A stretch of DNA of 64,000 nucleotides from an uncultured Candidatus Saccharibacteria bacterium (GCA_964509645.1 CAZDXV010000001.1:15890-79889), one strand, 5' to 3'; counted from the stretch's first letter, positions 23,775 through 59,408 are shown. Numbers and translations: made by a program. Notes: generated by a model not told the origin, from the letters alone.

Positions 23775-24386
23775 ATGAACAAAAAAGAGCTTACAGATTT
23801 AACTAACAAGGTTTACAAAATTACCCTGCTTTTCCCAAAAAAGGATCCTTTAAGGTATAAGGTAAGAGAAAAAGCAAATGATCTTTTGGCCGGTTTTGTT
23901 GCTTGGGAAAGCTATTGCAGTCCGAATCCGGGAAGCATTTTGGGAACTAAAAAAGATGAAAGAGAAATTCTTTTTTCTTTGGAAAAAGATTTTGATATAA
24001 TAAGAAGCTATTTTGAGGTAGCCAAATGGCAGAACTGGGTAAACTATTTTGACATATTGGAGCTTCAGGAAGACTATGATAAGATAAAGGGAGCGTTGAA
24101 AGAAGAAATAGGAAAGCTTAAAAAAGACAGTCCGAAAGGGGAAGAGCTTAAAAAGGTTAAAACAGAGCAGGTTGTGGAGGAAGATTTAGATGGAAGAAAA
24201 GGAGAAATAATCAAGATTCTTAAAAAGGTTAACAGGATTCAAGTCGGAGAAATTACAGATCTTCTTCCAAGTGTCTCCAAAAGAACTTTAAGGCGTGATT
24301 TCCATAAATTAGTGGAGCAGGGGACAGTTGAAAGGGTAGGAGACAAAAACAACACCTTTTACAGGTTAAGAAATAAAGAAGTATAG
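23775..24386 (+). CDS. four-helix-bundle (23S rRNA-IVS/Avd-like) N-terminal domain fused to C-terminal winged-HTH DNA-binding domain
   Basis: N-terminus LTNKVYKITLLFPKKDPLRYKVREKANDLLAGFVAW matches the FPKxE(R)y...niaEG four-helix-bundle family pattern. C-terminus EITDLLPSVSKRTLRRDFHKLVEQGTVERVG is DeoR/wHTH-like. Confidence 0.45.
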   Translation: MNKKELTDLTNKVYKITLLFPKKDPLRYKVREKANDLLAGFVAWESYCSPNPGSILGTKKDEREILFSLEKDFDIIRSYFEVAKWQNWVNYFDILELQEDYDKIKGALKEEIGKLKKDSPKGEELKKVKTEQVVEEDLDGRKGEIIKILKKVNRIQVGEITDLLPSVSKRTLRRDFHKLVEQGTVERVGDKNNTFYRLRNKEV

Positions 24387-24472: not shown

Positions 24473-24988
24473 ATGGCAAACCCTAAAAAAACATTCAGTA
24501 AGCTGTACGATAAAAACATCGATCAAATATATCGGTTTATTTACTTTAAAGTAGAATCTGAGGAAATAGCTCAGGATATATGCGCTGAAGCCTTTACTCG
24601 GGGATGGGAAGCTTTTAAAGAAAAGCATGATCAAATAGACAATCCCAGAGCTTTTCTGTATCGGATAGCCCATAACCTTGTAGCTGACCATCATAAAGCT
24701 AGGACAAGGGTAGAGTTTGTTTCTGTTGAAAATATTTCCTTGTCCGATCCGGATACTGACATAAAAGAAATGTCCGAAGTTAATTCTGACTTTAACAATA
24801 TTAAAAAAGCTCTGGAGGGGATAAATGAGGACTATAAAGAGATTATAGTGATGCACTATTTAAATGATCTTCAAATACCCGAAATAGCTCAAGCTTTAGA
24901 TAAATCAGAAGGAGCTGTAAGGGTCCAACTTCACCGGGCTATTAAATCTTTGAGAAAAACCCTTGAAAAAAATATAGAAATGTGCTAA
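24473..24988 (+). CDS. ECF-type RNA polymerase sigma-70 family factor
   Basis: Region 2 FTRGWEAFKEKHD...FLYRIAHNLVADHHKARTR and region 4 HTH EIIVMHYLNDLQIPEIAQALDKSEGAVRVQLHRAIKSLR; 171 aa. Confidence 0.85.
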   Translation: MANPKKTFSKLYDKNIDQIYRFIYFKVESEEIAQDICAEAFTRGWEAFKEKHDQIDNPRAFLYRIAHNLVADHHKARTRVEFVSVENISLSDPDTDIKEMSEVNSDFNNIKKALEGINEDYKEIIVMHYLNDLQIPEIAQALDKSEGAVRVQLHRAIKSLRKTLEKNIEMC

Positions 24989-24989: not shown

Positions 24990-25745
24990 TTGTGGGGTGT
25001 AACAAAAAGCCCTTTATTTCGTCATAACTATACAATGGAGGACAAAAAGCTTCTCAACGAGTTAAAGCAACTAAAAGAGATTAAACCCAGAAAAGACTGG
25101 GTTAGTTTGACTAAAAAAGAGATTTTAGGCGAAAATCCTTCTATTTTCAGTATAGAAGAGCTTATTTTAGGAGCTAAAATGGTTTTAAGGCATAAAGCCG
25201 CTTTTTCTTCTCTAGTTGTTCTTCTTGTTATTATAGGAACTTTCGGCTTTGCTCAGAATTCAATGCCGGGAGATATGTTTTTTAGTATTAAGAAAGCGGG
25301 AGAAAAGGGAATGAGTATTTTTGCCTCAGACAAAGTAGAAAGGAGTTTTGATATAGCAAACAAAAGATTAGAGGAGTTAACCCTCATATCCCATCAGAAT
25401 AATATAGATAAGCTGGCTCCAGCCATAGAAGAATATCAGACTTCAGTCTCTGAAACGGCAGAAAGCATAAAAAGGGAAGCGGAATCAGGCTCTGCGGACA
25501 AGCTGGCTAGAGAAATAGAGGTTTTAGCTTCAAAAAGAGTAGAACTGGAGGAAGAAGGAGTTGAAATACCCCAAAACGAGTCATATAACGCAGCTATGGG
25601 GAGGTTATTGAAAAGAGAGGTAGCAGATCTTGAAAACAGGTCTTTGATTGAAGAAAATGTTTCTGTTTTAAAAGAAGTTAAAGAGCTGATTGAAGAAGGC
25701 AAATTGGATCAGGCTTTTGTAAAGCTGATGAGCATTAAAAACTAG
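24990..25745 (+). CDS. single-pass membrane protein with DUF5667-like extracytoplasmic helical domain (candidate anti-sigma factor); probable start at 25035
   Basis: Immediately follows the sigma gene. TM SLVVLLVIIGTFGF and a long helical C-terminal domain, the sigma-adjacent architecture common in CPR. Likely start is MEDKKLL at 25035. Confidence 0.45.
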   Translation: MWGVTKSPLFRHNYTMEDKKLLNELKQLKEIKPRKDWVSLTKKEILGENPSIFSIEELILGAKMVLRHKAAFSSLVVLLVIIGTFGFAQNSMPGDMFFSIKKAGEKGMSIFASDKVERSFDIANKRLEELTLISHQNNIDKLAPAIEEYQTSVSETAESIKREAESGSADKLAREIEVLASKRVELEEEGVEIPQNESYNAAMGRLLKREVADLENRSLIEENVSVLKEVKELIEEGKLDQAFVKLMSIKN

Positions 25746-25769
25746 TTGAGTTTTCCACATTGACATTAT

Positions 25770-25796
25770 TATAGGACTGGTATAATGAAAGAATAT
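25770..25796 (+). promoter_or_regulatory. strong promoter with -35 TTGACA and extended -10 (TGgTATAAT)
   Basis: TTGACA at 25770-25775; cTGGTATAAT at 25788-25796 (spacer 15 nt, compensated by the TG extension). Confidence 0.5.
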
Positions 25797-25802
25797 TTGT
25801 AT

Positions 25803-26108
25803 TAATCCGCCGCAGTTCTATTTGATACCAAAAATATCAGATAGTCTCGCGGGTTGAAAAAGTCGTTGTTTTCTTGATTTTTTGAGTATTGGGCCCATGC
25901 ACTATAAGGTGCATAGGGTAAACAGAAAGGTTCTGTTAACTCGCACCTGTATGGTGCAAACCGCCTCGCAAGAGGCAGCCAAAAATATTTATACTCAAAA
26001 GTTCGAGACAAGGTCGACGACGACACATTATAAAAGGTCAAAAAAAGTTAAATAATTATCAACTGAAGATCGACAGATTAAAAGGTTGGTAATTACACAT
26101 TACAAATC
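25803..26108 (+). promoter_or_regulatory. ~300-nt structured 5' leader upstream of the putative S-layer gene, with several hairpins including a GNRA (GCAA) tetraloop stem
   Basis: Locally GC-rich. Hairpins atgcac-tataag-gtgcat (25897-25914), aacag-aaaggtt-ctgtt, gcacc-tgtat-ggtgc, gcctc-GCAA-gaggc (25963-25976). No forward ORF. Confidence 0.4.
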
Positions 26109-28130
26109 ATGAAAAAATTAATTGCAACAGCTATTACATTAGCCGTCGTTGCAGTTGTCGCTCCAGTAGCAGCTAGCGCTGTTGATGTCAGCGGAATGGA
26201 TCTTTCAGAGTTGCAGGATTTACTTGCAGCTATTGAAAGCCAGATCGCTGCTCTTTCAGGAGATACAAGTGGAGATGGAGTTGCAGTATCCTGCAATTTT
26301 ACCAGACCTCTTTATCCCGGAAGTACAGGAGCTGACGTTCAGTGCTTACAGCAGTACCTGAATGCCGAAGGGTTCACAGTAGCTTCTTCAGGCGCAGGTT
26401 CTCCGGGAAGTGAGACCATGTATTATGGTTCTCTTACCCAGGCTGCAATAGGCAACTGGCAAGACGCTAATGGCGTAGCTTACGGTAACTACAGAGGTTA
26501 CTTCGGTCCTGTTTCACAGGCCAAGTACGATGCTTTAGCTGCCGCAGATACAGAAGATGAAGATGAGGATGAAGATGAAGATGAGGATGAAGATGATGAA
26601 GATGATGAAGAACTCTCTGGTGGTGAAGCTACAGTTACTCTTACCGCAGCAGCTAGTCCTGCTTCAGGTACAGAGCTGTACACTTCAAATAACGACGTCG
26701 CAGTTGCTGCTTTCAACGCACAGGCTGTAGAAGGCGATGCCAGAATCGAAAGGTTAGATCTTAACTTTAGAACTGGTAACAGTGGAAATGCAAGAGTATG
26801 GCTTTATGTTGACGAGATTTCAATTTGGAATGGCGATGAAGAGGCAGCTAGAAAAAGTATTACTGAGAGCAGTGTTACTACAGTAACAACAGCTTCAGAT
26901 TACATGGTTCGTTTCACCGGTCTTGACATTATAGTTAGGGAAGATGAAACAGAAGAAGTCACCATTAAAGTTAGTGGCAAGAGTTTTCCTGATGGAGGTA
27001 CTGCTACTTCTTACATAGGTGATGTTGACGTTCTAGCAAACGCCGTGAGAGTAACTGACGGAACAGGTGTTACTTCTTACGAACCGACAAGTATGCTTCT
27101 TGACAGCCAGTACTTTACTGTCAAAGAGGGTGATACTGCTGCATTAGAGGGTTCTGTCAATACAGATAATCCTGACGAGCAGTCAGTACAGGTTTCTGAG
27201 TCAGGTACCACAGAGGATATTGTTTTATTGAGGCACGACCTTAAAGCTAAGAACAATAATGTTGTGATCAATAAGGTAGCAAGTGAAATATCAAGTTCTA
27301 CTTCTACTCCAAACACTGTTCTCTCAACGCTGTACTTATATGCTGACGATACTTTGTTAGCTAGCACCAGTGTTCCAAGCACTGTTGGTCGTTTAGCTGT
27401 ATTCACTGGTTGGGGCGATTACACTGTTGAAAAAGACGAAACAGTAACTCTTACTGTAAAGGCAGACGCAAAAAAGCGCCTGATGACTAATTACAATGAG
27501 GGTGCTGCCGCTTCAGCTCTTCTAGATGTTTCAGCTAATGTTGTTGCTTACGATGCAGACAACTATACTGCTATTACGCCCACGGGGTCAGATGGCACAG
27601 GTAAAGATCAGCATCTTTACAGCAAGGGTGTTAGGTTAGCCTTGAACGGCACTCCTTCATTAACAACAGTAGATTTGCCAGGTGCTAGTTCCAGTAGTGG
27701 TCCTATTAGAGCTACAGGTACTATGAAAGTAGATGTTACTGCTTTTGGTGGAACCGTTTATATCAAGGATGATTCTGACGCTAACGCTGCTAGTAGTGGT
27801 GTGTACGCAACTTCAAGTGAAACTGCCAGCACTACAACTACCTTTAGCGTGGTTAGTAACGCAGACACGGGAAGCAATAACAACTGGGTGGTTAGTGAGA
27901 CAGAGACATTTACAGTTACTTTCGACATTGCAAGTAGCGAAGTCTATGGTACTATGGGTGTAGCTGAAAAGTTCAGCGTTAGAGGCATTGTGCCTTATCT
28001 CAGATGGAGCACTACTGATTCAGCAGATGGAGGAATATTGACTAATACGACTAATGTTAGTAACTACGTATATCAGAATTGGGGCAAAAAGGATCTTAAG
28101 ACAGATCCGGTAATAATCTACGCTAAGTAG
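26109..28130 (+). CDS. secreted S/T-rich surface protein with N-terminal peptidoglycan-binding domain (PG_binding_1) and acidic (DE)n linker; candidate S-layer/major surface glycoprotein
   Basis: Signal peptide MKKLIATAITLAVVAVVAPVAASA. PGBD LYPGSTGADVQCLQQYLNAEGF...GYFGPVSQAKY. DEDEDEDEDEDEDDEDDEE tract. Remaining ~480 aa rich in T/S/V/A/G/N/D with no Cys. Noticeably higher GC and different codon usage from neighbours (GCT/GCA/GTT/ACT-rich). Confidence 0.5.
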   Translation: MKKLIATAITLAVVAVVAPVAASAVDVSGMDLSELQDLLAAIESQIAALSGDTSGDGVAVSCNFTRPLYPGSTGADVQCLQQYLNAEGFTVASSGAGSPGSETMYYGSLTQAAIGNWQDANGVAYGNYRGYFGPVSQAKYDALAAADTEDEDEDEDEDEDEDDEDDEELSGGEATVTLTAAASPASGTELYTSNNDVAVAAFNAQAVEGDARIERLDLNFRTGNSGNARVWLYVDEISIWNGDEEAARKSITESSVTTVTTASDYMVRFTGLDIIVREDETEEVTIKVSGKSFPDGGTATSYIGDVDVLANAVRVTDGTGVTSYEPTSMLLDSQYFTVKEGDTAALEGSVNTDNPDEQSVQVSESGTTEDIVLLRHDLKAKNNNVVINKVASEISSSTSTPNTVLSTLYLYADDTLLASTSVPSTVGRLAVFTGWGDYTVEKDETVTLTVKADAKKRLMTNYNEGAAASALLDVSANVVAYDADNYTAITPTGSDGTGKDQHLYSKGVRLALNGTPSLTTVDLPGASSSSGPIRATGTMKVDVTAFGGTVYIKDDSDANAASSGVYATSSETASTTTTFSVVSNADTGSNNNWVVSETETFTVTFDIASSEVYGTMGVAEKFSVRGIVPYLRWSTTDSADGGILTNTTNVSNYVYQNWGKKDLKTDPVIIYAK

Positions 28131-28205
28131 TAATTGCCTTTCCCAATTGATATACTTGATGCTCTGAAAGCAAGTTTCTGGTTGAACTTTAAAGCCAGGG
28201 GAAAT

Positions 28206-28245
28206 CCCTCCGATTGCAATCGGAGGGTTTTCTTTTAAGTTTTTT
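28206..28245 (+). terminator. strong rho-independent terminator
   Basis: ccctccga-TTGCAA-tcggaggg perfect 8-bp stem followed by TTTTCTTTTAAGTTTTTTTT. Confidence 0.7.
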
Positions 28246-28300
28246 TTGGTATACTGTCTATTAGAAGCTAGAGATTTTTTTATCCTAACTTTTAGCTAAA

Positions 28301-30541
28301 ATGATAGAAAAAATTACAAAGTTTTTAATTCTATTAGCCTTAATAATACCTCCTTTTGTTAAGACAGATTATTTATTTTTTCCTTTTTCTTCAGGAAAGG
28401 TGTTTTTTTTCCGCTTCTTTTTGTTTTTAGCTCTTTTAGGATGGGTTATTTTAATGTTAAGAAATAGGGAATTTAGGCCTCAGATGAATATTTTAACAAT
28501 TGCCCTTATTTTATTTGTTATTGGAATGCTGGTAACAAGTTTTACGGGAGTGGGTATTATGCGTTCTCTTTTTTCTAACTTTGAAAGGCACGATGGAACA
28601 ATTCAGTTTTCTTTTTTCGTTTTATACTTTTTAATGCTGATTTCAGTGTTTAAGTCTAAAAAAGATTGGCAGGTATTGATTGGCAGTTTTTTATTGACAG
28701 CATTTGCTATTTCTATTTATTCTTGGATAAGTCAGGGAGAGCAGACTAGATTATCCGGTCTCTTTGGGAACCCTTCCTATCTCGGTGCTTTTTTGCTAAT
28801 TGCTATAGGGTTTTCTGCCGTCGGTTTAAGAGAAAGCTTCAGAAATTTTAACGGCTTTTTAGGAAAGAAATATATTAAAGTTAGCTTAATAACCTTAATC
28901 TTATTTTTCTTAATAACCTTATTTTATACGGGCACTAGAGGTTGTTATGCAGGTATCGCCGTTGCTTTCTTATTAATGGTTATTTTTTCTATATTCTTTT
29001 TCAGAAAGAACAAAAAGGTATTTATTTCTTTGATTTTTGTTGTTGTTCTTTTAATTTTCTTTTTAAGTTTAATATTCATTTTTTCAGATCATTCTTTTGT
29101 AAGAAGCCGTTCAAATCTTAAAAGAATAGCTGATTTAAAAAATCCAACAGAGATTTCTTCGGTTAGCGAAAGATTGTCTGTTTGGAATATGGCTCTAAAA
29201 GGATTTAAGGATAAACCTGTTTTTGGCTGGGGTCCCGAGAACTTTGAAGCTGTTTTTAACAGGCACTATGATTATAAGGTTGGTTTATCAGAGCCTTGGT
29301 TTGATAAAGCCCATAATCAGTTTTTAGAAGTTTTAGCTACGGGAGGAATATTTCTTTTTTCTATTTATCTTTTTTTAATTTTTTCCGTATTTTATTTAAT
29401 ATTTAAAATATTTAAAAAAGAGAAACTGTTAGCTGTTATTTTGACTTCTATTTATTTTGGCTATTTAGTCCAAGGAATGTTTTTGTTTGATACTCTCCAT
29501 TTATATCTAGCACTTTTCCCTTTCTTAGCTTTTATTTCTTTTGAATACAAAAGACTATATCTTTCTTCCGGGGAAAATAACAGAAAAACAAATAAAGAAA
29601 ATCCTTCTTTGTTTAAATTTTTTACAGGGGTAACTGTTTTGGTTGTTATCTTTTTGCTTTATACGACCGTCTGGCTTCCTTATAAAGCAAATGCTTCGGC
29701 TTTAAACTGTTTGATGGCCACAAGAGAAGGTAATTTTAAAGAAGCAAAAGAGTTTTTAGAAGAAGCGATTGACAATGATACGCCTTTTTCTTTTGTTCCG
29801 ATAAGAATTAGAGTTTCTTGGGACTTCTTTTCAGGATTAGCTCTCATAGAAGAGGGTGTACCTCCCGAAAAAATAAAGCCCGCTATAAAGGATCTTTATC
29901 GTCTTTTAACGTCAGAATTAGAAAAAGTAGTGATTAGTTCTCCTTATAATTCTAGGGTTTATTATGTTTTAGGAGTACTTTATCAATTAGGATTTGAAAA
30001 ATTAGGAATAAACGACTTAGATAAAGCAGAAGAAATTTTTAAAAAGTCTTTAAACTACTCTGACAAAAGAACCGATTATTACAATGAGTATGCTAAGGTT
30101 TTATTAGCGATGGAAGAATATAAAAAAGCGGAAAAATTAGTTAAAGAATATTTAGAGAGGACAGGTAGAAAAGATCCTACTGTTTTATTTACTTTGGGTA
30201 ATATAAATTTTAATCAAGGAAATTATGAGTTAACTATAAAATATTATGAAAGAGCGCGTGAAGAAGGTTACGATTTTCTAAAAACGGAAGGATCTTATTC
30301 TCGTTATCTCTTATCTGCTCAGGAGATTGGCGACTACCAAAAAATTATTGATGCAGCCAAGGCTTATTTAGAAAAAAATAGAAGTCTTCTTGAAGGGAAA
30401 AAACTGGCTAATACTTATTACAACATAGCTTTGGGTTATATGAAAATAGGTAAAAATGATGTAGCTAAAGAATATTTTTACAAAGCTTTAGAAATAGAAG
30501 AGGGGTACAAAGAATATAAAAGTATTTTTGATAATCTTTAA
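28301..30541 (+). CDS. O-antigen ligase/Wzy_C-domain polytopic membrane protein with C-terminal TPR repeats (candidate O-oligosaccharyltransferase or polymerase)
   Basis: ~12 TM helices with the Wzy_C-like segment YTGTRGCYAGIAVAFLLMV...WGPENFEAVFNRHYD...HNQFLEVLATGGIF. C-terminal ~250 aa made of TPR-like repeats. Confidence 0.6.
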   Translation: MIEKITKFLILLALIIPPFVKTDYLFFPFSSGKVFFFRFFLFLALLGWVILMLRNREFRPQMNILTIALILFVIGMLVTSFTGVGIMRSLFSNFERHDGTIQFSFFVLYFLMLISVFKSKKDWQVLIGSFLLTAFAISIYSWISQGEQTRLSGLFGNPSYLGAFLLIAIGFSAVGLRESFRNFNGFLGKKYIKVSLITLILFFLITLFYTGTRGCYAGIAVAFLLMVIFSIFFFRKNKKVFISLIFVVVLLIFFLSLIFIFSDHSFVRSRSNLKRIADLKNPTEISSVSERLSVWNMALKGFKDKPVFGWGPENFEAVFNRHYDYKVGLSEPWFDKAHNQFLEVLATGGIFLFSIYLFLIFSVFYLIFKIFKKEKLLAVILTSIYFGYLVQGMFLFDTLHLYLALFPFLAFISFEYKRLYLSSGENNRKTNKENPSLFKFFTGVTVLVVIFLLYTTVWLPYKANASALNCLMATREGNFKEAKEFLEEAIDNDTPFSFVPIRIRVSWDFFSGLALIEEGVPPEKIKPAIKDLYRLLTSELEKVVISSPYNSRVYYVLGVLYQLGFEKLGINDLDKAEEIFKKSLNYSDKRTDYYNEYAKVLLAMEEYKKAEKLVKEYLERTGRKDPTVLFTLGNINFNQGNYELTIKYYERAREEGYDFLKTEGSYSRYLLSAQEIGDYQKIIDAAKAYLEKNRSLLEGKKLANTYYNIALGYMKIGKNDVAKEYFYKALEIEEGYKEYKSIFDNL

Positions 30542-30570
30542 TTGTTTCTAATTTTTTGTTAACATAGATC

Positions 30571-32295
30571 TTGATGAAAGACTTTTTTAAGAAAACAATC
30601 CTTTTGGGTTTTATTTTATTTTCTCTTTTTATTGGAGGAAAAGTTTTAGCTTCAGAAGGTTTCCATGTGGATCCAGATTACGATCTTTTTAAAAGAAAAG
30701 AAATAGAAGCAGTAAAAATTGATTCATCTGACAAATTGTACTTTTATATTGATAACAGCTGGTGGGAAGATCTTTTTTCTGAAGAAAAAGAGAAGATAAA
30801 GGATTCTTTGGAAAAATTAGGGAAAGAGTTTGATGATAATATTTATCCTATTTTAACTTCAGATTATGGATCTGAATGGAACCCTGGCATTGATAATGAC
30901 AACAGGATTACAGTTTTAATCCATCCGATGAAAGGAGGGGTAACGGGATATTTTAATAGTGGAGACCAGTATAGTGTTTACCAAAATTCGGCTTCTAACG
31001 AAAGAGAGATGGTTTATCTAGATGTTAGGCGTATTACAGATGAGGCAGTAGAAAGCTATTTAGCTCATGAGTTTACTCACTTGATTACTTTTAATCAGAA
31101 GCAAAATTTAAATAATATTCAAGAAGAAGTGTGGCTGAATGAAGCAAGAGCAGAATATGCTTCTACTTTGTGTGGATATAACGAAGAGTACGAGGGAAGT
31201 TATCTTGAATCAAGAGTAAATGATTTTATAAAAACTCCTTCTGATTCTATTACAGAATGGCAGGGAAAAACTGACGACTATGGTGCTCTTTCTATGTTTA
31301 TTCACTATTTGGCGGATCATTACGGTAAAGAGATTCTTACCAAAAGTATTAGATCTTCTAAAATAGGAATTGAGAGTATAAACGAAGCTTTAAGAGACAA
31401 TGGATCTAATAAAAGATTTTCAGAAATATTTATTGATTGGACAATAGCAGTGTTTGTAAATGATTGTTCTATGAACGAGAAATATTGTTATTTAAATAGT
31501 AACCTAAAAAACTTGAGAGTTTTCCCCCAGAGTAATTATTTGCCGGTAGAATCCCAAAGCATTCTTTCCGTTTTTTATCAGACAAAAGATTGGACAGGAA
31601 GATGGCATAAAATATTCGGAGGGAAGGGCAACCTGGAATTTGAATTTGACGGAGAAGATGATATAAGTTTTAAGGCCCCTTTTATTCTTTGTAGAAAGGG
31701 AAATAACTGCTCAGTAGATTATTTGGAATTAGATAGCAAACAAAAAGGACAGATTAAAATATCCGATTTCGGAGAAGATTACAATTATTTTACTATCATT
31801 CCCGTGGTTAGAGAGAAAATTTCAGGATTTGACGGTTCAGAAACTAATTACAGCTATTCTTGGCAAGCTAATTCCTCTGGGCTGAAAGATGATGCTGTTG
31901 ATGAGCACCAAAACAATATTCCTATAGAAGATCAGGTGGGAGAAACAAAAGAAGAAAAGCTTAGCAGGCTTTTACGCCTTTTAGAGTTGGTAAAAGAGAG
32001 AATAGCTGAGATTATTTCAGGGGATTCTTATTGTCAGAGAATTGATAACAATCTTTATTACGGAATGAGAAATAATAATGAAGTAAAATGTTTACAGAAA
32101 TTTTTAAAAAATCAGGGTTCTGACATCTATCCTGAAGGATTAGTAACCGGTAACTATCTCTCTCTGACAAGAAAAGCCGTAGTTCGTTTTCAGGAAAAAC
32201 ATAAAGACCAAATACTGACTCCGCTTAATTTAAGTCAGGGAACAGGTTATTTTGGGCCCAGGAGTCGGGAAGTAGCCAACGAACTAATGGATTAA
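30571..32295 (+). CDS. secreted putative zinc metallopeptidase (HEXXH) with C-terminal peptidoglycan-binding domain
   Basis: Signal anchor; AHEFTHLITF...EEVWLNEARAEY (HExxH plus downstream Glu). C-terminal CLQKFLKNQGSDIYPEGLVTGNYLSLTRKAVVRFQ...GYFGP PG_binding_1. Confidence 0.45.
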   Translation: MMKDFFKKTILLGFILFSLFIGGKVLASEGFHVDPDYDLFKRKEIEAVKIDSSDKLYFYIDNSWWEDLFSEEKEKIKDSLEKLGKEFDDNIYPILTSDYGSEWNPGIDNDNRITVLIHPMKGGVTGYFNSGDQYSVYQNSASNEREMVYLDVRRITDEAVESYLAHEFTHLITFNQKQNLNNIQEEVWLNEARAEYASTLCGYNEEYEGSYLESRVNDFIKTPSDSITEWQGKTDDYGALSMFIHYLADHYGKEILTKSIRSSKIGIESINEALRDNGSNKRFSEIFIDWTIAVFVNDCSMNEKYCYLNSNLKNLRVFPQSNYLPVESQSILSVFYQTKDWTGRWHKIFGGKGNLEFEFDGEDDISFKAPFILCRKGNNCSVDYLELDSKQKGQIKISDFGEDYNYFTIIPVVREKISGFDGSETNYSYSWQANSSGLKDDAVDEHQNNIPIEDQVGETKEEKLSRLLRLLELVKERIAEIISGDSYCQRIDNNLYYGMRNNNEVKCLQKFLKNQGSDIYPEGLVTGNYLSLTRKAVVRFQEKHKDQILTPLNLSQGTGYFGPRSREVANELMD

Positions 32296-32358: not shown

Positions 32359-32604
32359 ATGGGAAAGATTAAACCAGACGAATTATATACAACAAAAGAA
32401 GCGAAAAGTTTTTTGAAGATATCAGAGAGCACTATGAAACGTCTTTTAAAGAAAGGTATAATTAAGGCTCACAAGGTCGGGGGGCAATATAGAATTTGGG
32501 GTAGTGAAATATTACAGCTTGTTTCTCCCAAGCTAGAGTCGGGTGTTTATCGAGTTTATAAAAAGGCCAAAGATAAAACTAGAGAAAAAATAGAAAAATG
32601 GTAA
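32359..32604 (+). CDS. small excisionase/MerR-like HTH DNA-binding protein
   Basis: ELYTTKEAKSFLKISESTMKRLLKKGIIKAHKVGGQYRI matches the HTH_17/excisionase-type helix-turn-helix pattern; 81 aa. Confidence 0.5.
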   Translation: MGKIKPDELYTTKEAKSFLKISESTMKRLLKKGIIKAHKVGGQYRIWGSEILQLVSPKLESGVYRVYKKAKDKTREKIEKW

Positions 32605-32635: not shown

Positions 32636-33628
32636 ATGAAAAAAAGAATTTTAATTACGGGCGGAGTAGGATTTATCGGCGCTCATTTAATAGAGGGTAT
32701 TTTGAAGGATACGAATTGGGAAATTGTTATAATAGATAGGTTAGATATATCAGGAAATACAAAAAGACTAACAGATATTGAGCTTTGGGATGAAGAAAAA
32801 GATAGAATTAAATTTATTTGGTGGGATTTAAAATCAGAGGTAAATAATTCTATTAAAAAAGAGATAGGAGAGGTAGATTATATTTGGCATTTAGCCGCTT
32901 CTAGTCATGTAGATAGAAGCATAGAGGATCCTCTATTGTTTGTAATGGATAATGTAGTAGGAACATGCAATCTTTTGAATTTTTCAAAAAAACTCAAAAA
33001 TTTAAAGCAGTTTATATATTTTTCCACTGATGAAGTATTTGGACCAGCTAAGAGCGGAGTATCTTATAAAGAGTGGGATAGATATAAATCAGGCAACCCT
33101 TATGCTGCCACCAAGGCCGGTGCTGAAGAATTATGTGTTGCCTTTCAAAACACTTATAAACTTCCAATAATTATTACTCATACTATGAACGTGTTTGGTG
33201 AAAGACAACATCCAGAGAAATTTATCCCTCTTGTTATTAAAAAAGTTCTAGTTGGTGAAAAAGTGTTTATCCATGCCGACAAGACAAAAACAAAATCAGG
33301 AAGTAGGGCATGGATACATGCTAGAAATGTATTTTCAGCACTATTTTTTCTAACAAAAAAGGGGAAACCAGGCGACAAATACAACATAGTAGGGGAAAAA
33401 GAAGTAACTAATTTAGAAATGGCTCAGTTTATAGCTAGGGTTATTGGAAAAGAATTAAAATATGAGTTAATCGATTTTCATTCTTCAAGACCAGGGCATG
33501 ATTTAAGATATAGCTTGGACGGTAAAAAAATGAGAAAAATGGGTTGGCAGCTTCCTAAGACATTCGAGCAATCATTAAAAAAAACTATTAAATGGACATT
33601 AGATCATCAAGAATGGATAAACATTTAG
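32636..33628 (+). CDS. rfbB: dTDP-glucose 4,6-dehydratase (SDR family)
   Basis: ILITGGVGFIGAHL Rossmann motif; HLAASSHVDRSIEDP (RmlB signature); YAATKAGAEEL catalytic YxxxK. Confidence 0.7.
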   Translation: MKKRILITGGVGFIGAHLIEGILKDTNWEIVIIDRLDISGNTKRLTDIELWDEEKDRIKFIWWDLKSEVNNSIKKEIGEVDYIWHLAASSHVDRSIEDPLLFVMDNVVGTCNLLNFSKKLKNLKQFIYFSTDEVFGPAKSGVSYKEWDRYKSGNPYAATKAGAEELCVAFQNTYKLPIIITHTMNVFGERQHPEKFIPLVIKKVLVGEKVFIHADKTKTKSGSRAWIHARNVFSALFFLTKKGKPGDKYNIVGEKEVTNLEMAQFIARVIGKELKYELIDFHSSRPGHDLRYSLDGKKMRKMGWQLPKTFEQSLKKTIKWTLDHQEWINI

Positions 33629-34038
33629 GTAATAAAAAAATTAGACACAAAGTTAAAGAAATAGAACTCCATTCAGATGAAAGGGGTTGGTTGGCAGAGG
33701 TATTAAAAAGAAACGAAATAAAAGAAGACATAAAGCAGATTTATGTTGCTACCATTAAACCGGGTTATATTAGGGGTAATCATTATCACCTAGAAAGAAC
33801 CGAATGGTTCTTTGTTGTCGGTGGCAGGGCTAATCTATATCTTGGAAATCCCGAAAACAAAGAAAATATTTGTTTAGAAATTTCCTCTGGGAAACCTAAA
33901 GTAATAACTATTTTCCCCAAAACAGCTCATGCTGTAAAAAACACAGGAGAAGAAACCATTTATTTAGTAAGTGCTCGAAATACTATTTATGATCCGGAAA
34001 ATACGGACACATTTTATTATTCGCTTTGTGAAAAATAA
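33592..34038 (+). CDS. cupin-fold sugar-nucleotide 3,5-epimerase/3,4-ketoisomerase (RmlC/FdtA-like)
   Basis: HSDERGWLAEV and RGNHYH cupin motifs; small size favours an FdtA/QdtA-like ketoisomerase. Probable start downstream of the annotated one. Confidence 0.45.
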   Translation: MDIRSSRMDKHLGNKKIRHKVKEIELHSDERGWLAEVLKRNEIKEDIKQIYVATIKPGYIRGNHYHLERTEWFFVVGGRANLYLGNPENKENICLEISSGKPKVITIFPKTAHAVKNTGEETIYLVSARNTIYDPENTDTFYYSLCEK

Positions 34039-34055
34039 TTTCTAAGAATTTAAAA

Positions 34056-35345
34056 ATGAAAAATTTAGAATATTTGATTAAAAATAAAAAAGCTAAAGTT
34101 GCTGTAGTAGGTTTAGGATATGTGGGGTTGCCTCATGCCGTGGAATTGGCTAAGGCAGGATTTAATGTTTTTGGAATTGATATTAAGAAGGAGAGAGTAG
34201 ATAGAGCAAACAAAGGAGATTCTTATATTGGGGACGTAAAAGACGAAGATCTTAAAAGTGTTCTAGGTAAATTTAAGGCGTTTAATAATTTTGAAAAATT
34301 AAAAGAAGTTGATGTTGTTTTGATTTGTGTTCCTACTCCTCTTGATAAGCACAAGGTCCCTGATATTTCTTATATTAAAAAATCGAGTCAAGAGATTAAA
34401 AAAAGATTGAAAGATAAAAAATTAATAATTCTTGAAAGTACTAGCTATCCTGGCACAACAGAGGAAATTATTCTGGCTATGCTTCAAAAAGAGGGGTTAA
34501 AAGTAGATCAAGATTTTTATTTAGCTTTTGCTCCGGAAAGAATTGATCCCGGAAATAAAATGCCTTTTTATGATATTCCTAAAATAGTTGGAGGAGTGAC
34601 AAAAGAGAGCACGAAACTGGCTCAAATTTTTTATGAACAATTTATAAAAAAAGTTTATTCTGTATCCTCCTCTAGAGCAGCGGAAATGACCAAACTTTTA
34701 GAAAATGCCTATAGGTTAGTGAATATTTCTATGGTTAATGAACTGTCTCTTCTTTGCGACAAAATGGGAGTTGATATTTGGGAAGTAATTAGAGCCGCAG
34801 AAACCAAGCCTTATGGGTTTACTCCTTTTTATCCCTCTCCCAAGATAGGGGGGCATTGTATTCCTCTTGATCCTTTTTATCTTTCTTATAAGGCAAAAGA
34901 ATATAATTTTTGGGCTCGATTTATTGAATTAGCGGGAGAAATTAACGATCATATGCCGCATTTTGTGGTTACAAAAATTAATTATCTTTTAAACAAAAAT
35001 AAAAAATCTATTTCTGGATCTAAAATTTTAATTTGGGGAGTAAGCTACAAAAAAGATATAGGAGATATCAGAGAATCAGCTTCTTTAAGAATAATCCCTG
35101 ATTTGATAAGAAAAGGAGCTGAGATTTCTTATTTTGATCCTTATGTTCAAAAACTAAACATAGGAAGGAAGGTTTTTAATTCTATAAATTATTTGTTAAA
35201 AGAATTAAAAAAATACGATTTGGTTTTAATTATAACTGATCACTCTGATTTTGATTACAATAAGATAGCAAAAAATTCTAATTTGGTAGTAGATACTAGA
35301 AATGCGATTAAATCCAGGGATCATAATAATGTTTTCTGGCTATAA
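34056..35345 (+). CDS. nucleotide-sugar (UDP-N-acetylhexosamine) 6-dehydrogenase, WbpA/TviB/WecC family
   Basis: VAVVGLGYVGLPHAVELA Rossmann; catalytic Cys in GGHCIPLDPFYL; 429 aa. Confidence 0.75.
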   Translation: MKNLEYLIKNKKAKVAVVGLGYVGLPHAVELAKAGFNVFGIDIKKERVDRANKGDSYIGDVKDEDLKSVLGKFKAFNNFEKLKEVDVVLICVPTPLDKHKVPDISYIKKSSQEIKKRLKDKKLIILESTSYPGTTEEIILAMLQKEGLKVDQDFYLAFAPERIDPGNKMPFYDIPKIVGGVTKESTKLAQIFYEQFIKKVYSVSSSRAAEMTKLLENAYRLVNISMVNELSLLCDKMGVDIWEVIRAAETKPYGFTPFYPSPKIGGHCIPLDPFYLSYKAKEYNFWARFIELAGEINDHMPHFVVTKINYLLNKNKKSISGSKILIWGVSYKKDIGDIRESASLRIIPDLIRKGAEISYFDPYVQKLNIGRKVFNSINYLLKELKKYDLVLIITDHSDFDYNKIAKNSNLVVDTRNAIKSRDHNNVFWL

Positions 35346-35347
35346 TT

Positions 35348-36130
35348 ATGAAATTTTTTTTAATAGGAAAAGGATTTATTTTTCCGCGCCATAAGAATGC
35401 TATAGAAAGTATAGGCGGTGAGATAATAGATATAGTAAGTAAGGAGGATGGTGAAGAAAAGTGGAAAGAAGTCTTAGATAATACGTTAGCTGAGTATGTT
35501 TCTATTCTGACCCCCAACTATCTTCATTATGAAATGATAGAAAGAGCTTTAAGTAGGGGAAAAAGAGTTCTTTCCGAAAAACCCTTAGTTATAAATTCAA
35601 ACAACGCAAAAGAATTAATAGGAAAAGATGTTTTTTGCGTTTTACAGCTAAGGTATCATCCTCTGGTTAAGAAAATTAAAAAAAAGATAAGTAAAACCGA
35701 AAAAAACAAAATAGATATAGATGTTTCAGTTTTTAGAGATAGGGATTACCATAGAGGTTGGAAAGGAAATACAGAAAAGTCCGGAGGCTTACTATTTAAC
35801 TTAGGTATTCATTATTTTGATCTTCTCTTATATCTTTTTGGGAAAGAAAAAGAAGCAAAAACCCTTTTCTTAAAAGAAAAGAGTGGGCAAGGGATTATTC
35901 GCGGAGAAAATTATGTTTGTAATTGGCGAATAAGTACAAACGAGAGAAGAGATAACCAAAGAAGAATTTTTAGGATAAATGGCGAAGATTATAATTTTTC
36001 TTCTAAAGATAATCTTTCTTATGAAAATCTTCATAAATTTGTTTACAAGGATTTTGTTCAAGGAAAAGGAGTTAAAGCAAAAGAGGAGATAGAATCAATT
36101 AAATTAGTAGAAAGGCTTTATGAAAAATAA
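35348..36130 (+). CDS. Gfo/Idh/MocA-family oxidoreductase (WbpB-like 3-dehydrogenase candidate)
   Basis: N-terminal [16 protein letters not shown] dinucleotide fold, EKP motif. Sits between the WbpA-like and WbpD/E-like genes. Confidence 0.5.
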
Positions 36131-36701
36131 ATTTCACAAGACGGTAAAAATTCAGAGGGGTGCCAAAATAGGAAAAGGTACTGAAATTTGGCATAATTCT
36201 CAAGTTTTGAAAGAGGCTGAAATAGGCAAGGGCTGTACAATAGGCCACAATTGTTTTATTGGATCTGGGGCACGATTAGGAAATGGTGTAAAACTTCAAT
36301 CAAACATAGATATCTGGGATCGGATTGTATTGGAAGATTATGTTTTTGTGGGGCCTTCAGCTGTTTTTACTAACGATCTTAATCCTAGATCTAAATATCC
36401 GAAATCGGAGTATCAAGAATATGGGCAATGGTTACCTACCTTAGTTAAGAAGGGATCTTCAATTGGAGCTAACTCTACAATTATTTGTGGTGTAACTGTT
36501 GGTAGCTGGTCAATGATAGGAGCTGGTGCTGTAGTAACTAAGGATATACCTGATTATGCCATTGCAGTGGGTAATCCTGCAAGAGTTATTGGTTGGGTTT
36601 GTGAATGCGGTAATAAACTTAATCTTGAAAGAGGAAAATCAGAATGTCCAATTTGTCATAGAAAATATAAAAAAGAAGAAAATAAAGTATGGCAAGAATA
36701 A
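36120..36701 (+). CDS. hexapeptide-repeat sugar N-acetyltransferase (WbpD/FdtC/PglD-like) with C-terminal CxxC...CxxC zinc-ribbon
   Basis: Left-handed beta-helix repeats ([32 protein letters not shown]...). C-terminal CECGNK...CPIC. Confidence 0.65.
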
Positions 36702-37801
36702 ATTTTTTAGATTTTAAAAAGCAACATTTCTCAATAAAAAAAGAAATTGAACTAGGTTTCAAAAAGGTTTTGGAAAGCCAAATTTTTATAAACGGAGAAG
36801 AAGTGGAAAAGTTTGAAAAAGAAGTAGCTGATTTTTGTGGTGTTAAAGAAGCTGTTGGTGTAAACTCCGGTACCGATGCTCTTTCTCTTTCTTTGAAAGC
36901 TTTTGGCATAAAAGAAGGAGATGAAGTAATAACCACTCCTTTCACTTTTATTTCTACAGCAGAAACCATTATTAATTTGGGAGCGAGGCCTGTTTTTACG
37001 GATATAAATAAAGATTTAAATATTTCTCCTGAAGAGATAGAAAAGAAAATTACAGATAGAACAAAAGCAATTATCCCCGTTCATTTATTTGGATTAGTTT
37101 CTCAAATGAATAAAATTTTAAAAATAGCTAGGAACCATGGTCTTTATGTGATAGAAGATGCAGCTCAAGCTTTTGGGTCGGGATACAAAGGGAAAAGAGC
37201 GGGTTCTATGGGGGATATAGGATGTTTTAGTTTTTTTCCGACAAAAAATCTAGGAGCGCTGGGGGACGGAGGCATGGCGGTTACAAATAATGAAAAATTA
37301 GCTGAGAAGATAAGACTTTTAAGAAATCATGGTTCTGATTTCGAAAATAAATATCGAAATTTAATCTTGGGAACTAACTCGAGATTGGATTCTATCCAGG
37401 CAGCTATTTTAAGAACCAAATTAAACTATATTGAAAGTTGGATTAGGGAAAGGAGAAATATTGCAAAAAATTATAACAAAAGACTGTCCGCAATAAAAGA
37501 AATTAAAACGCCTTCTTTTGCGAAAGACGATTATCATTCTTTTAATTATTATACAATAAGAGCTAAAAGAAGAGATGAATTAAAAATTTTCTTAGAAGAA
37601 AAAGGAATCGAGACCAAAATTTATTATTTTCTTCCCCTATATTCTCAACCAGCTTTAAATTTTTTAAAAGTCGATAAAAATTATTTTTCTGAAACAGAAA
37701 AGGCAGCTAAGGATGTTCTTTCTCTGCCCATTTATCCCGGTTTTGAAAATCAAGATTTTGTTGTTAATAAGATAAAAGAATTTTATAAAAGAATTTTATA
37801 G
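36689..37801 (+). CDS. DegT/DnrJ/EryC1/StrS-family PLP-dependent sugar aminotransferase (WbpE/FdtB-like)
   Basis: [15 protein letters not shown]...[16 protein letters not shown] (PLP-Lys region); 370 aa. Confidence 0.8.
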
Positions 37802-37810
37802 ATTTTTAAA

Positions 37811-38968
37811 ATGGCAAAAAAATATCAAATTTGTACAAAATGTATTTTAGACACTACGGCTCCCTATATTCATTTCGATGAAAAAGGAGTTTGTAATTAT
37901 TGCAGAAAAGAAGGATCTTTTGTAAAAAAGTATCTTTCTATATCACCTCAAAAAAAAGAAAAAGAATTAAAGAAAATAATCAATAAAATCAAAGAGCAAG
38001 GAAAAGGTAAAAAATATGACTGCATTGTAGGACTTAGCGGGGGAGTAGATAGCACTTATCTTACTTATATAGCTAAAGAAATGGGCTTAAGGCTTCTGGC
38101 TGTTCACTTAGATAATGGATGGGATGCTGAGATGGCAGTTGATAACGTTAATGATATTGTAAAAAAGCTTAATATCGACCTCTATAATTATAAGATAAAC
38201 TGGGAAGAATTTAAAGATTTACAATTAGCATACTTAAAATCTTCAGTGGTTGATATAGAAGCTATTACAGACCATGCAATAAAAGCCCTTTTGTATAATA
38301 CTGCCCAAAAAAGAAATATTAAATATATCTTGAGCGGAGGAAATATTGCAAGCGAAGGAGTTTTACCCAAGGGGTGGGCTCATAATAAAAATGATTTAGT
38401 AAACCTGAAAGATATATACGGTCGTTTCGGTACGCTTAAGCTGAAGACATTTCCTACTTTAGGTTTTTGGAAAAAAAGGTATTATGAAAAAATTAAAGGA
38501 ATTCAGAGAATAGCAATTTTGAATTATATTCCTTACGTTAAAAAGGATGTTAAAGATTTTCTTGTTAAAGAAATTGGATGGAGAGATTATGGCAGTAAAC
38601 ACTATGAGTCTATTTTTACTCGATTTTACCAAGCTTATATCCTCCCCAGAAAGTTTAATATTGATAAAAGAAGAGCTCATTTATCAAGTTTGATTTACTC
38701 GGGCCAGATGACTAGGGAAGAGGCCCTAAAAGAAATAGAAAAAGATCCTTATCCGGACAAGGGAATGATGGAAAAAGACAAAGAGACAGTTTTGAAGAAG
38801 CTTGGGTTTACCAAAAAGGAGTTTGAGAAGATAATGAAACTTCCCATTAAAAGTCATTTTGATTACAAAACTGACGCAAAAACAGTAAGTTTTGCAAGAG
38901 CTATTTATAAACCGGTGAAACTATTCAAAAACTTTGTGAATGTTTTGAAAAATTATGGCAAAAGATAA
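37811..38968 (+). CDS. N-acetyl sugar amidotransferase (PP-loop ATP pyrophosphatase, WbpG-like)
   Basis: N-terminal Cys4 cluster CTKC...CNYC; PP-loop DCIVGLSGGVDSTY; 385 aa. Confidence 0.6.
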   Translation: MAKKYQICTKCILDTTAPYIHFDEKGVCNYCRKEGSFVKKYLSISPQKKEKELKKIINKIKEQGKGKKYDCIVGLSGGVDSTYLTYIAKEMGLRLLAVHLDNGWDAEMAVDNVNDIVKKLNIDLYNYKINWEEFKDLQLAYLKSSVVDIEAITDHAIKALLYNTAQKRNIKYILSGGNIASEGVLPKGWAHNKNDLVNLKDIYGRFGTLKLKTFPTLGFWKKRYYEKIKGIQRIAILNYIPYVKKDVKDFLVKEIGWRDYGSKHYESIFTRFYQAYILPRKFNIDKRRAHLSSLIYSGQMTREEALKEIEKDPYPDKGMMEKDKETVLKKLGFTKKEFEKIMKLPIKSHFDYKTDAKTVSFARAIYKPVKLFKNFVNVLKNYGKR

Positions 38969-40950: not shown

Positions 40951-40956
40951 TACGAT

Positions 40957-44358: not shown

Positions 44359-44367
44359 TTTAAAAAT

Positions 44368-45492: not shown

Positions 45493-45493
45493 T

Positions 45494-45988: not shown

Positions 45989-46019
45989 AGCTGATTATGA
46001 GTTTTAAATCTTAAAATTA

Positions 46020-47904: not shown

Positions 47905-47918
47905 TCAATTTTTAAGAA

Positions 47919-50127: not shown

Positions 50128-50175
50128 TTAAAATCTATAAAAGAATTAAAATTTTAAATATAGAAACAAACATCT

Positions 50176-58306: not shown

Positions 58307-58336
58307 GACAAATTATACAATTTTTAGTACTCCTTA

Positions 58337-59401: not shown

Positions 59402-59408
59402 TGTTTCC

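Follow-up and report, generated by a model that had tools for sequence, protein, structure and literature searches.

Which protein forms the Paceibacteria surface layer (S-layer)? The Candidate Phyla Radiation (CPR) bacteria, or Patescibacteria, make up a large share of bacterial diversity, and S-layers have been seen by cryo-electron microscopy on groundwater CPR cells and on Ca. Nealsonbacteria. The lattice protein was not identified there; the authors of the Nealsonbacteria work speculated that proteins with a peptidoglycan-binding domain (PGBD) might be involved. In the literature searched, no paper naming the S-layer protein of the Paceibacteria was found, and PGBD proteins are flagged only as highly expressed 'extracellular enzymes'. 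The question is raised by a locus at positions 25,770 to 32,295 of a 64,000-nucleotide stretch of DNA from an uncultured Candidatus Saccharibacteria bacterium (GCA_964509645.1 CAZDXV010000001.1:15890-79889), hereafter the window, which is AT-rich and in which nearly all of the listed open reading frames (ORFs) of at least 100 residues are on the same strand. The locus contains the gene of a secreted protein of 673 residues, the coat protein candidate, preceded by a long leader and followed by genes for a Wzy_C-TPR membrane protein and a PGBD metalloprotease, beyond which lies a glycan cluster.

We propose, with moderate confidence, that this locus carries the gene of the major wall-anchored surface protein, of the S-layer type, of an ultra-small bacterium of the Paceibacteria (CPR), along with the signals for its expression and a set of accessory genes. 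That the 673-residue protein is a major wall-anchored surface protein is well supported; that it would form an S-layer in the strict sense, a two-dimensional lattice, is plausible, and it is the best S-layer candidate found here for these bacteria. The locus provides a concrete candidate family, whose members number in the thousands and divide clearly into anchor and body, along with conserved accessory genes (for a sigma factor with a DUF5667 protein, a helix-turn-helix (HTH) regulator, the Wzy_C-TPR enzyme, an M30-like protease anchored to the wall, and the glycan cluster) and a conserved leader RNA with a short recognisable motif. The leader is the main new point and the most novel component of the locus.

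Domain structure and divergence of the coat protein candidate

26109..28130, + strand: coat protein candidate, 673 residues (ORF call, Pfam, AlphaFold2 model, alignments)

The original prediction had described a 673-residue ORF at 26109–28130 with a signal peptide, an N-terminal PG_binding_1 domain and a linker of Asp and Glu residues, and all of these are present according to the ORF call, Pfam and the model. The Sec signal peptide (residues 1–24) starts with MKK and has a hydrophobic core at residues 4–22 and an ASA motif at 22–24. It is followed by a short amphipathic helix (residues 32–52), the PGBD (approximately 62–146), the (D/E) linker (147–170) and three β-sandwich domains, D1 to D3, spanning approximately residues 171–343, 344–514 and 515–673, respectively. 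The dedicated anchoring module is of the PG_binding_1 type (PF01471), matched over residues 73–123 with an E-value of 1.5e-6 and a score of 28.7 bits against a gathering cut-off of 23. Residues Leu 35, Ile 39, Leu 42 and Leu 49 of the predicted helix, to which the family consensus adds Leu 46 and Leu 53, are spaced alternately by 3 and 4 positions, and this spacing of hydrophobic residues suggests a coiled coil.

The AlphaFold2 model (mean predicted local distance difference test score 82) features the helix, the PGBD, a disordered linker and three all-β Ig-like domains, for which the top Foldseek matches are integrin legs and antigen I/II. The body is all-β with no enzyme fold and, as the original prediction had noted, it is rich in Ser and Thr (23.9% over residues 171–673, compared with 10.5% in the other genes) and free of Cys; the only two Cys residues of the protein, Cys 62 and Cys 79, lie within or beside the PGBD. 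The whole protein is acidic, with 99 Asp and Glu residues against 40 Lys and Arg residues.

Comparison with two close relatives (related loci are given L numbers; here L010 and L009) reveals a gradient along the chain, with identities of 83–86% in the anchor, 42–51% in D1, 40–42% in D2 and 29–34% in D3, whereas the flanking proteins are 72–81% identical in L010 and L040. At the DNA level, similarity to L010 is continuous from the HTH gene across the leader into the anchor and is then lost. Judged from these alignments, the gradient is the pattern expected of a conserved wall-proximal anchor joined to an exposed, diversifying outer domain, and the fact that the gene evolves fastest in its distal domain supports the surface protein reading. 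This hypervariable outermost domain probably helps to determine how the cell interacts with host or phage. The linker, which is encoded at 26549–26620 and consists of Asp and Glu only, lacks sequence conservation: its place is taken in relatives by linkers of other lengths that are T/P/G-rich or E-rich, so that only the function of a flexible spacer seems to be kept.

In the assembly that we propose, the helix would oligomerise the protein, the PGBD would hold it non-covalently to peptidoglycan, and the three β domains would project outward and pack into a coat, with the fast-evolving last domain outermost.

A profile search built from 41 family members returned at least 3,586 clusters at 50% identity (E ≤ 1e-30), of which the best 150 have lengths of 528–800 residues and nearly all match the full profile. 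Pattern scans placed the family in at least 361 genomes of GTDB species and at least 426 metagenome stretches; both counts are lower bounds. The scan pattern was built from an 11-sequence alignment, since the 41-sequence alignment was too divergent for pattern design, and a contig scan with the single protein gave no match. In these scans, the relatives of the window belong to the Patescibacteria, class Paceibacteria, and include Nealson-, Harrison-, Jorgensen-, Giovannoni-, Sung-, Kaiser-, Lipton-, Niyogi- and Colwellbacteria as well as Minisyncoccales; all taxon-labelled records are Patescibacteria except for one labelled Pacearchaeota. Besides the class of the window protein (the 650-residue class), there is a second class of approximately 1,150 residues, and only the first ~145 residues, comprising signal peptide, helix and PGBD, are common to both. 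Besides PG_binding_1, no Pfam or NCBIfam family covers the 673-residue protein, which belongs to a very large and uncharacterised family.

Expression signals and codon usage

25750..25786, + strand: promoter, consisting of a GTTTTCCACA box, TTGACA at 25760–65, a 15-nt spacer and the extended −10 element TGgTATAAT at 25778–86 (read from the sequence)
28206..28236, + strand: intrinsic terminator of the coat gene, with a 9-bp stem (28206–28227, 6 GC pairs) followed by the T-run TTTTCTTTT

The coat gene has its own promoter and its own terminator. The promoter is near-consensus and strong, with a perfect extended −10 element, and the same arrangement is found in L010, L040, L009 and L023; a consensus promoter scan missed it, as that scan requires spacers of 16–18 nt. 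Extended −10 promoters were found by a regular-expression search in only 22 of 141 leaders, so this type of promoter cannot be generalised across the family. The TTGACA/extended −10 promoter of the original prediction was thus recovered, as was its hairpin-rich leader of ~300 nt; the terminator is there as well, with a stem of 9 pairs in place of a perfect one of 8 bp.

The GTTTTCCACA box (25750–25759) also lies directly 5' of the −35 element in about a dozen relatives, among them L010, L040, L009, L023, L001, L018, L104, L109 and L091. The sequence TTTCCAC occurs in the sense orientation in 17 leaders and in antisense in 8, and the box may be an activator site or an UP-like site.

The atypical GC content and codon usage previously noted for the gene are both distinct, and they have different origins. 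The GC content of 0.438 (mean 0.337) owes its excess to codon positions 1 and 2 (GC2 z = 4.4) and for this reason reflects amino-acid composition, whereas GC3 is ordinary (0.316, z = 0.7); a foreign origin for the anomaly was rejected on account of this normal GC3. Among the 29 genes of the window, the coat gene has the highest NNC/(NNC+NNT) ratio (0.42; mean 0.24, standard deviation 0.07) and the highest share of GGT codons (0.51), and the L010 coat gene has the same codon pattern. Such a bias is the usual signature of translational selection and fits high expression. Together, the promoter, the terminator and the codon bias of the coat gene support its reading as a major surface protein.

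Published expression data exist for what appear to be related genes. PGBD proteins with similar predicted structures are among the five signal-peptide genes of highest expression in three Paceibacteria, as judged from metatranscriptomes (Kuroda et al., PMC10936435). In the supplementary table of that work, Ca. Yanofskyibacterium has the order 00353 (DeoR HTH), 00352 (ECF sigma; extracytoplasmic function), 00351 (DUF5667) and 00350 (2,079 nt, signal peptide), which is the gene order of the window, and the tabulated expression values for these four genes are 10.4, 7.6, 12.5 and 16.7, respectively; the values look log-scaled. Gene 00350, which counts among those five signal-peptide genes, is assigned to the coat family by size, signal peptide, PGBD and gene order, not by sequence; its value lies well above those of the three genes upstream, as a promoter of its own would lead one to expect.

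A conserved structured leader RNA

25802..25857, + strand: leader element 1, a hairpin near the 5' end (RNAalifold consensus of five relatives, the distal half with compensatory changes)
25862..26024, + strand: leader element 2, long rod closed by helix P1 (GUCGUUG 25862–68 paired with CGACGAC 26018–24; folds, alignment, covariation)
26012..26017, + strand: GGUCGA motif on the 3' side of the rod beside P1 (6-mer enrichment upstream of the family)
26053..26095, + strand: leader element 3, a hairpin whose loop contains UCGAC, 13 nt upstream of the AUG (RNAalifold; L009 and L023 carry compensatory changes)

Conservation and covariation mark the leader as a structured RNA, one without a match in Rfam; the original prediction had described its hairpins and overlooked that it is a conserved RNA element. 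The region 25793–26120 folds with −108.6 kcal/mol (z = −11.6 relative to 100 dinucleotide shuffles). In five close relatives, RNAalifold gives a consensus of 77 base pairs in three elements, and 9 of these 77 pairs carry compensatory double changes. The leader of L023 keeps the base of the rod and lacks its distal part, and no T-run follows the hairpin of element 3.

The architecture extends to 17 leaders from organisms with coat proteins only 30–50% identical. In these, P1 and P3 are paired in 91.8% of the alignment cells, compared with ~40% in slid controls; compensatory changes affect 7 of the 17 pairs, a number that 2 of 500 shuffles attained, and the covariation score lies above all 500, with the reservation that such shuffles overstate significance for related sequences. 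Independent folds of the single sequences mostly agree with this layout, and only two of the 17 lack a rod closed by P1. RNAalifold on the 17-sequence alignment recovered P1 only, since the variable distal domain misaligns P2, and P2 was excluded from the counted structure. A covariance model of P1 and P3 (R1) found seven leaders outside the seed, every one directly upstream of a coat gene, and nothing else significant on either strand of 1.3 Mb. There is no match at the Rfam 15 gathering score in the window or in 16 related loci, and the sole Rfam match in the leader at E ≤ 10 is a chance microRNA (E 6.2). The leader was also considered as the source of a leader peptide, but its 52-codon ATG ORF keeps neither frame nor start in L010, L040 and L023.

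Upstream of the family, GGTCGA is the most enriched 6-mer, present in 91 of 138 leaders against 4.9 expected (250 nt upstream of non-redundant members), and it occurs in this position across the Paceibacteria. The broader form GGTCGR is found 129 times in sense and 5 times in antisense, with a density of 2.93 per kb in leaders compared with 0.098 per kb elsewhere in the same loci. In the window, the copy at 26012 is the only intergenic one on the plus strand, and the 3' hairpin has a related UCGAC in its loop. As judged from single-sequence folds, 4 of the 17 leaders leave the motif wholly unpaired, whereas the others pair part of it. A search for any 7-nt partner of the strand that follows GGTCGR did not discriminate (66 loci against 41–53 in shuffles) and was replaced by the class-specific alignment and covariation counts. 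Two other roles for the motif were discarded: as a −10 element for an ECF sigma factor it lacks any −35-like element at a fixed distance, and as a general translation signal it is at odds with a density 30-fold lower outside these leaders and with its single intergenic plus-strand copy in the window.

Other lineages carry two or three copies of the motif in A-rich sequence, or have it after a hairpin with a CCUCAC loop. A different conserved layout is found in leaders of the 1150-residue class, where a hairpin with a CCUCAC loop is followed by GGGUCGAU and then by a short hairpin ending in CCAGAAAA, again without an Rfam match (L103, L046, L052, L155, L160, L077, L056, L060, L044, L087, L152, L163, L049 and L074). 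A third leader block, CUGGAGWYUCRAGKCCGGUCGAUCC, contains GGUCGA and lies 150–290 nt upstream of the gene in L047, L059, L061, L069, L075, L076, L133, L136, L148 and L149.

Strand specificity, the presence of wobble pairs and the separation of the P1 strands by 65–290 nt argue for a function at the RNA level. The leader may act in two ways. By analogy with other S-layer mRNAs, the 5' hairpin and the rod would shield the mRNA from 5'-end-dependent decay and so raise output, while GGUCGA would serve as the recognition site for a trans-acting factor that tunes coat synthesis. We put forward more tentatively, as a possibility, that the leader is a new class of cis-regulatory RNA specific to Paceibacteria coat genes, in which a class-conserved factor, perhaps the precursor of the coat protein or an RNA-binding protein dedicated to this task, binds GGUCGA and matches coat synthesis to surface growth, and that the family is the PG_binding_1-anchored S-layer of a large part of the CPR. 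The motif could serve to mark these genes and could open a way into gene regulation in these very hard-to-culture organisms.

The Wzy_C-TPR protein and the glycan cluster

28247..28255, + strand: second extended −10 element, TGgTATACT, between the coat terminator and the Wzy_C gene (read from the sequence)
28301..30541, + strand: Wzy_C membrane protein (glycosyltransferase fold GT-C, WaaL/PglL type), 746 residues with a C-terminal TPR domain of 287 residues (Pfam)
32359..32604, + strand: HTH_17 protein, 81 residues, at the head of the glycan cluster (Pfam; 53–84% identical in six relatives)
32636..53414, + strand: first block of the glycan cluster, with sugar-nucleotide modifying enzymes, GT4 and GT2 glycosyltransferases and methyltransferases
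40957–42294, + strand: Wzx-type flippase, within the first block
47919–49190, + strand: PMT_2 GT-C, within the first block
57662..61973, + strand: second block of the glycan cluster, with a PIG-L deacetylase, an ATP-grasp protein and a methyltransferase
61380–61973, + strand: PglC-like initiating Bac_transf, within the second block

The Wzy_C-TPR membrane protein of 746 residues had been predicted at 28301–30541 and is found there, with a Wzy_C domain (PF04932) at residues 200–357 (E 4.8e-25, 88.5 bits against a cut-off of 31.7) and several TPR families at residues 540–740. It has approximately 13 hydrophobic segments and a large loop at residues 261–349, and the positive-inside rule predicts the TPR domain to be outside. 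Every NCBIfam match falls below its cut-off. Outside the TPR region, the PDB is matched by sequence only in the WaaL ligase of C. metallidurans (7TPG). Residues Arg 291 and His 338 of the window protein align with Arg 265 and His 313 of this ligase, the latter two being, we assume, the proposed active-site Arg and catalytic His of the WaaL structure. Active-site arginines and a catalytic histidine have been proposed for WaaL and for the O-oligosaccharyltransferase PglS, without WaaL residue numbers (PMC12800693). The sequence therefore places the protein in the ligase/oligosaccharyltransferase branch, with WaaL/PglL-type ligases; it does not tell apart polymerases, ligases with a lipid acceptor and protein oligosaccharyltransferases.

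At least 14 of 32 loci of the 650-residue class have a Wzy_C homolog directly downstream of the coat gene and on its strand, and so do at least 18 of 51 of the 1150-residue class, both being lower bounds from single-query tblastn. Its recurrence in both classes argues for a functional link, and its frequent absence implies that the link is not obligatory. In the window, the second extended −10 element, ~45 nt before the Wzy_C gene, suggests that this gene is transcribed separately.

The glycan cluster had been described as exceeding 30 kb. It is present at 32.6–53.4 kb and at 57.7–~62 kb, and is interrupted by an ABC transporter at 54.2–57.7 kb. In the model that we propose, the Wzy_C-TPR enzyme would transfer an undecaprenyl-pyrophosphate-linked glycan from this cluster onto an extracytoplasmic acceptor, for which the S/T-rich coat protein would be the best candidate, with the outward TPR domain as a protein-binding module. 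A dedicated O-glycosylation system is plausible.

The HTH_17 (excisionase/MerR-like) protein is among the better conserved of the locus and is a possible regulator of the cluster. At 46930–51129, a GT2, the PMT_2 GT-C, an LPG_synthase_TM protein and another GT2 stand in a row; this array resembles the three-component addition of polyprenol-phosphate sugars outside the membrane and is an alternative route to protein or polymer glycosylation.

The M30-like protease

30574..32295, + strand: zinc metalloprotease with M30-like fold, a β-sandwich, a helix (residues 460–482) and a C-terminal PGBD (503–573) (Pfam, model, alignment)

The third gene of the locus encodes the predicted PGBD metalloprotease, with a corrected start: the ORF runs from 30571 to 32295, and the start is most likely ATG 30574, since an identical database protein (P0068) has 573 residues. 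The protein has the M30 catalytic fold with a zinc-binding HExxH motif and a downstream Glu. By sequence profile there is no Pfam or NCBIfam M30 match, only weak below-cut-off matches to DUF2268, the MXAN_6640 HExxH family and flagellinolysin, and no PDB match by sequence. Its PG_binding_1 domain (residues 502–544, 25.1 bits against a gathering cut-off of 23) is homologous to that of the coat protein (30% identity, E 2e-6), and the combination of a helix with homologous PGBDs in both proteins suggests a shared location. The protease would sit in the same wall compartment as the coat and could process or turn over coat subunits.

Conserved neighbouring genes

23775..24386, + strand: DeoR-type HTH protein, 203 residues, with a C-terminal winged HTH (Pfam HTH_DeoR E 1.2e-8; same place in Ca. 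Yanofskyibacterium)
24473..24988, + strand: ECF-type sigma factor, 171 residues (Pfam Sigma70_r2 and r4_2)
24990..25745, + strand: DUF5667 single-pass membrane protein, 251 residues (Pfam DUF5667 E 1.7e-9; position conserved)

The genes and signals described in the original prediction are present, and the conserved regulator genes upstream of them had escaped it. The recurring order in relatives is DeoR-type HTH, ECF sigma, DUF5667, coat gene, often Wzy_C-TPR, and M30-like protease. In the 650-residue class, the DeoR-type HTH gene is found upstream in 20 of 26 loci, the ECF sigma gene in 19 and the DUF5667 gene in 16, while the 574-residue protein corresponding to the protease of the window is found downstream of the coat gene in 16 of 25 loci. 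The DeoR-type HTH gene, which is also upstream in 12 of 44 loci of the 1150-residue class, is the most widely conserved upstream neighbour of the coat gene.

Of the sigma-70 regions, the sigma factor has just 2 and 4 (TIGR02937 scores 88 bits, with a cut-off of 42.9), and its best NCBIfam match, the BldN family, is below cut-off (111 against 206 bits). The DUF5667 protein has one hydrophobic segment at approximately residues 64–93, and its gene starts 2 nt past the stop of the sigma gene, an arrangement typical of anti-sigma factors, because of which we regard it as a putative anti-sigma factor. No mention of DUF5667 was found in the literature searched. Through the pair of ECF sigma factor and DUF5667 protein, and through the DeoR-type HTH protein, the locus would be coupled to envelope status.

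S-layer protein and alternative interpretations

The original prediction of an S-layer or major surface protein was borne out as far as a secreted, wall-anchored, all-β protein with strong expression signals is concerned; its emphasis on the atypical GC content was misplaced, as this follows from amino-acid composition and not from codon usage. Several points weigh against an S-layer and its dedicated glycosylation. The Pfam search matched PG_binding_1, Wzy_C and TPR as expected, but gave no SLH match at E ≤ 0.01 in the coat protein, and we know of no characterised S-layer that is anchored by PG_binding_1. Tandem Ig-like domains are equally typical of adhesins and fibrils. The length of the leader, ~316 nt, depends on a 5' end inferred from the position of the promoter. 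The Wzy_C gene stands beside the coat gene in only ~35–45% of relatives and is absent from over half of the related loci; the PMT_2 GT-C (47919–49190) is an alternative protein glycosyltransferase, and the cluster has a Wzx flippase with no other Wzy candidate, so that the Wzy_C protein may be its polymerase.

The nearest alternative for the protein itself is an abundant wall-anchored adhesin or fibril for host attachment, with the S-layer made by another protein. Its body strings together Ig-like domains such as those of pilus adhesins, antigen I/II and integrin legs, the distal domain is hypervariable, which interaction with a host or phage would lead one to expect, and the S-layer of other CPR lineages is believed to use SLH proteins. 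Kuroda et al. (PMC10936435) likewise proposed host attachment for highly expressed PGBD proteins, reading the same kind of protein as a host-attachment factor, where the membership of that protein in the present family rests on size and gene order. Ig-domain arrays are, however, also the architecture of many known S-layers, for example Deinococcus HPI and SbsC; family length and architecture are uniform over thousands of clusters, and both the acidic, Cys-poor, S/T/A/V/G-rich composition and the monocistronic high-expression design fit a structural coat better. We therefore consider an adhesin rather unlikely and prefer a structural coat. An extracellular peptidoglycan hydrolase or other enzyme is very improbable: some sources do name relatives 'peptidoglycan hydrolase-like protein with peptidoglycan-binding domain', and PG_binding_1 is common in wall hydrolases; the body of the window protein is predicted to be all-β.

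For the sequences upstream of the gene, an action as DNA is conceivable, in which the GGTCGA copies and the inverted repeats of the leader are operators for DeoR-type HTH proteins or promoter elements for an ECF sigma factor. The HTH gene is the most conserved upstream neighbour, GTCGAC is palindromic, and in L002, L003 and L013 a sigma-70-like TTGAAA-N18-TAATAC overlaps the 5' strand of P1, which might leave that strand untranscribed there. Nevertheless, the nearly pure strand specificity of the motif (129 against 5) would be unusual for sites of dimeric HTH proteins, nothing stands at a fixed −35-like distance from it, P1 strands 65–290 nt apart keep pairing through G-U wobbles and compensatory changes, and the whole 328-nt stretch has z = −11.6 as RNA. 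A DNA-level role is thus unlikely, and the leader is better read as an RNA element. The alternative for the Wzy_C-TPR protein carries more weight, and falls not far short of an even chance: rather than being a protein O-oligosaccharyltransferase, it would polymerise a Wzx-dependent surface polysaccharide or ligate it to an acceptor in the wall or of lipid nature, and its gene would adjoin the coat gene solely through the clustering of envelope genes. In the window, a Wzx flippase and a PglC-like initiating transferase are encoded with no other Wzy-family gene, and the PMT_2 protein is encoded there as well, which leaves room for a polymerase role or for a different protein glycosyltransferase; the only PDB sequence match is WaaL, a lipid-acceptor ligase, all NCBIfam matches are below cut-off, and 18 of 32 and 33 of 51 loci have no such gene beside that of the coat protein. 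Set against this are its position directly downstream and on the same strand in two deeply diverged coat classes that share only the ~145-residue anchor, and a C-terminal TPR domain, a protein-binding type of module, predicted to face outward. A large extra C-terminal periplasmic domain is found in O-oligosaccharyltransferases such as PglS as well (PMC12800693), and the aligned Arg and His are common to the ligase and oligosaccharyltransferase branch. Adjacency to the coat gene and the outward TPR domain would weaken the polymerase or ligase alternative, and are only suggestive.

Comparison with known systems

In the S-layer loci of Bacillales (sgsE with the slg cluster and WsaB in Geobacillus stearothermophilus; spaA and WsfB in Paenibacillus alvei), a WaaL/Wzy_C-type enzyme O-glycosylates the S-layer protein. 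These loci have, like the window, a strong promoter and a coat gene followed by a glycan cluster with a WaaL/Wzy_C-type enzyme, and their S-layer proteins are likewise acidic, poor in Cys and rich in Ser and Thr, joining a conserved anchor to a body that diverges. In Bacillales, however, the anchor is an SLH domain that binds a pyruvylated wall polymer, whereas that of the window is PG_binding_1 after a helix; the window Wzy_C enzyme additionally carries TPR, the cluster is of the Wzx type, and the host is a CPR bacterium.

S-layer mRNAs, such as that of Lactobacillus slpA, have long stabilising 5' untranslated regions. The window shares with the slpA type a long hairpin-rich leader on a monocistronic, highly expressed coat gene, and differs from it in the conserved multi-helix architecture, the covariation and the strand-specific GGUCGA shared across the whole class. 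The conserved architecture and the strand-specific motif suggest specific recognition over generic stabilisation. The Streptomyces BldN-RsbN sigma/anti-sigma pair controls the chaplin and rodlin surface-layer genes, and here too an ECF sigma gene and an adjacent membrane protein gene lie near a surface coat gene; the score of the window sigma factor is below the BldN cut-off, the coat promoter is of the sigma-70 type and not evidently of the ECF type, and DUF5667 is not RsbN.

The Ig-domain S-layers of Deinococcus (HPI), Bacillus anthracis (Sap) and Geobacillus (SbsC) are beads-on-a-string β-sandwiches with a separate anchor (PMC10120038, PMC11665858, PMC13635256), as in the window protein. 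The latter has only three body domains, predicted in its model, and no detectable sequence similarity to these proteins. WaaL, PglL and PglS (PDB 7TPG, PMC12800693) resemble the window enzyme in Wzy_C, ~13 transmembrane helices, a large outward loop and the aligned Arg and His, whereas the C-terminal domain of PglS is replaced by the 287-residue TPR domain in the window protein, for which NCBIfam models stay below cut-off. The M30 zinc metallopeptidases (hyicolysin, lugdulysin; PDB 7BB8) are only 19% identical to the window protease, which adds a β-sandwich, a helix and a C-terminal PGBD and is without a Pfam or NCBIfam M30 match. As a locus of the S-layer type, that of the window brings a new anchor together with a protein family and an accessory set that are likewise new.

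Additional observations

Just 5' of the HTH, sigma and DUF5667 genes lie genes for large secreted proteins with Lamin Tail Domains (17605–21933 in the window, 3985–7647 in L003 and 5483–7855 in L005). The protein of the window has 1,442 residues with BACON and β-propeller matches, and these proteins may be further surface components. In L012 and L014, two contigs of one metagenome-assembled genome (MFD04408.bin.1.52), the whole locus is repeated with ~95% DNA identity, which could reflect a duplication or two co-binned strains; as near-copies, they are uninformative on variation of the cassette. Finally, at 13872–15161 the window has a region of ~1.3 kb with 48% GC (~36% nearby), without a convincing ORF or an Rfam match at E ≤ 1, adjoining a transposase-like gene on the minus strand (15162–16187) with an N-terminal HTH_38; this region could be a decayed gene or an undescribed RNA.

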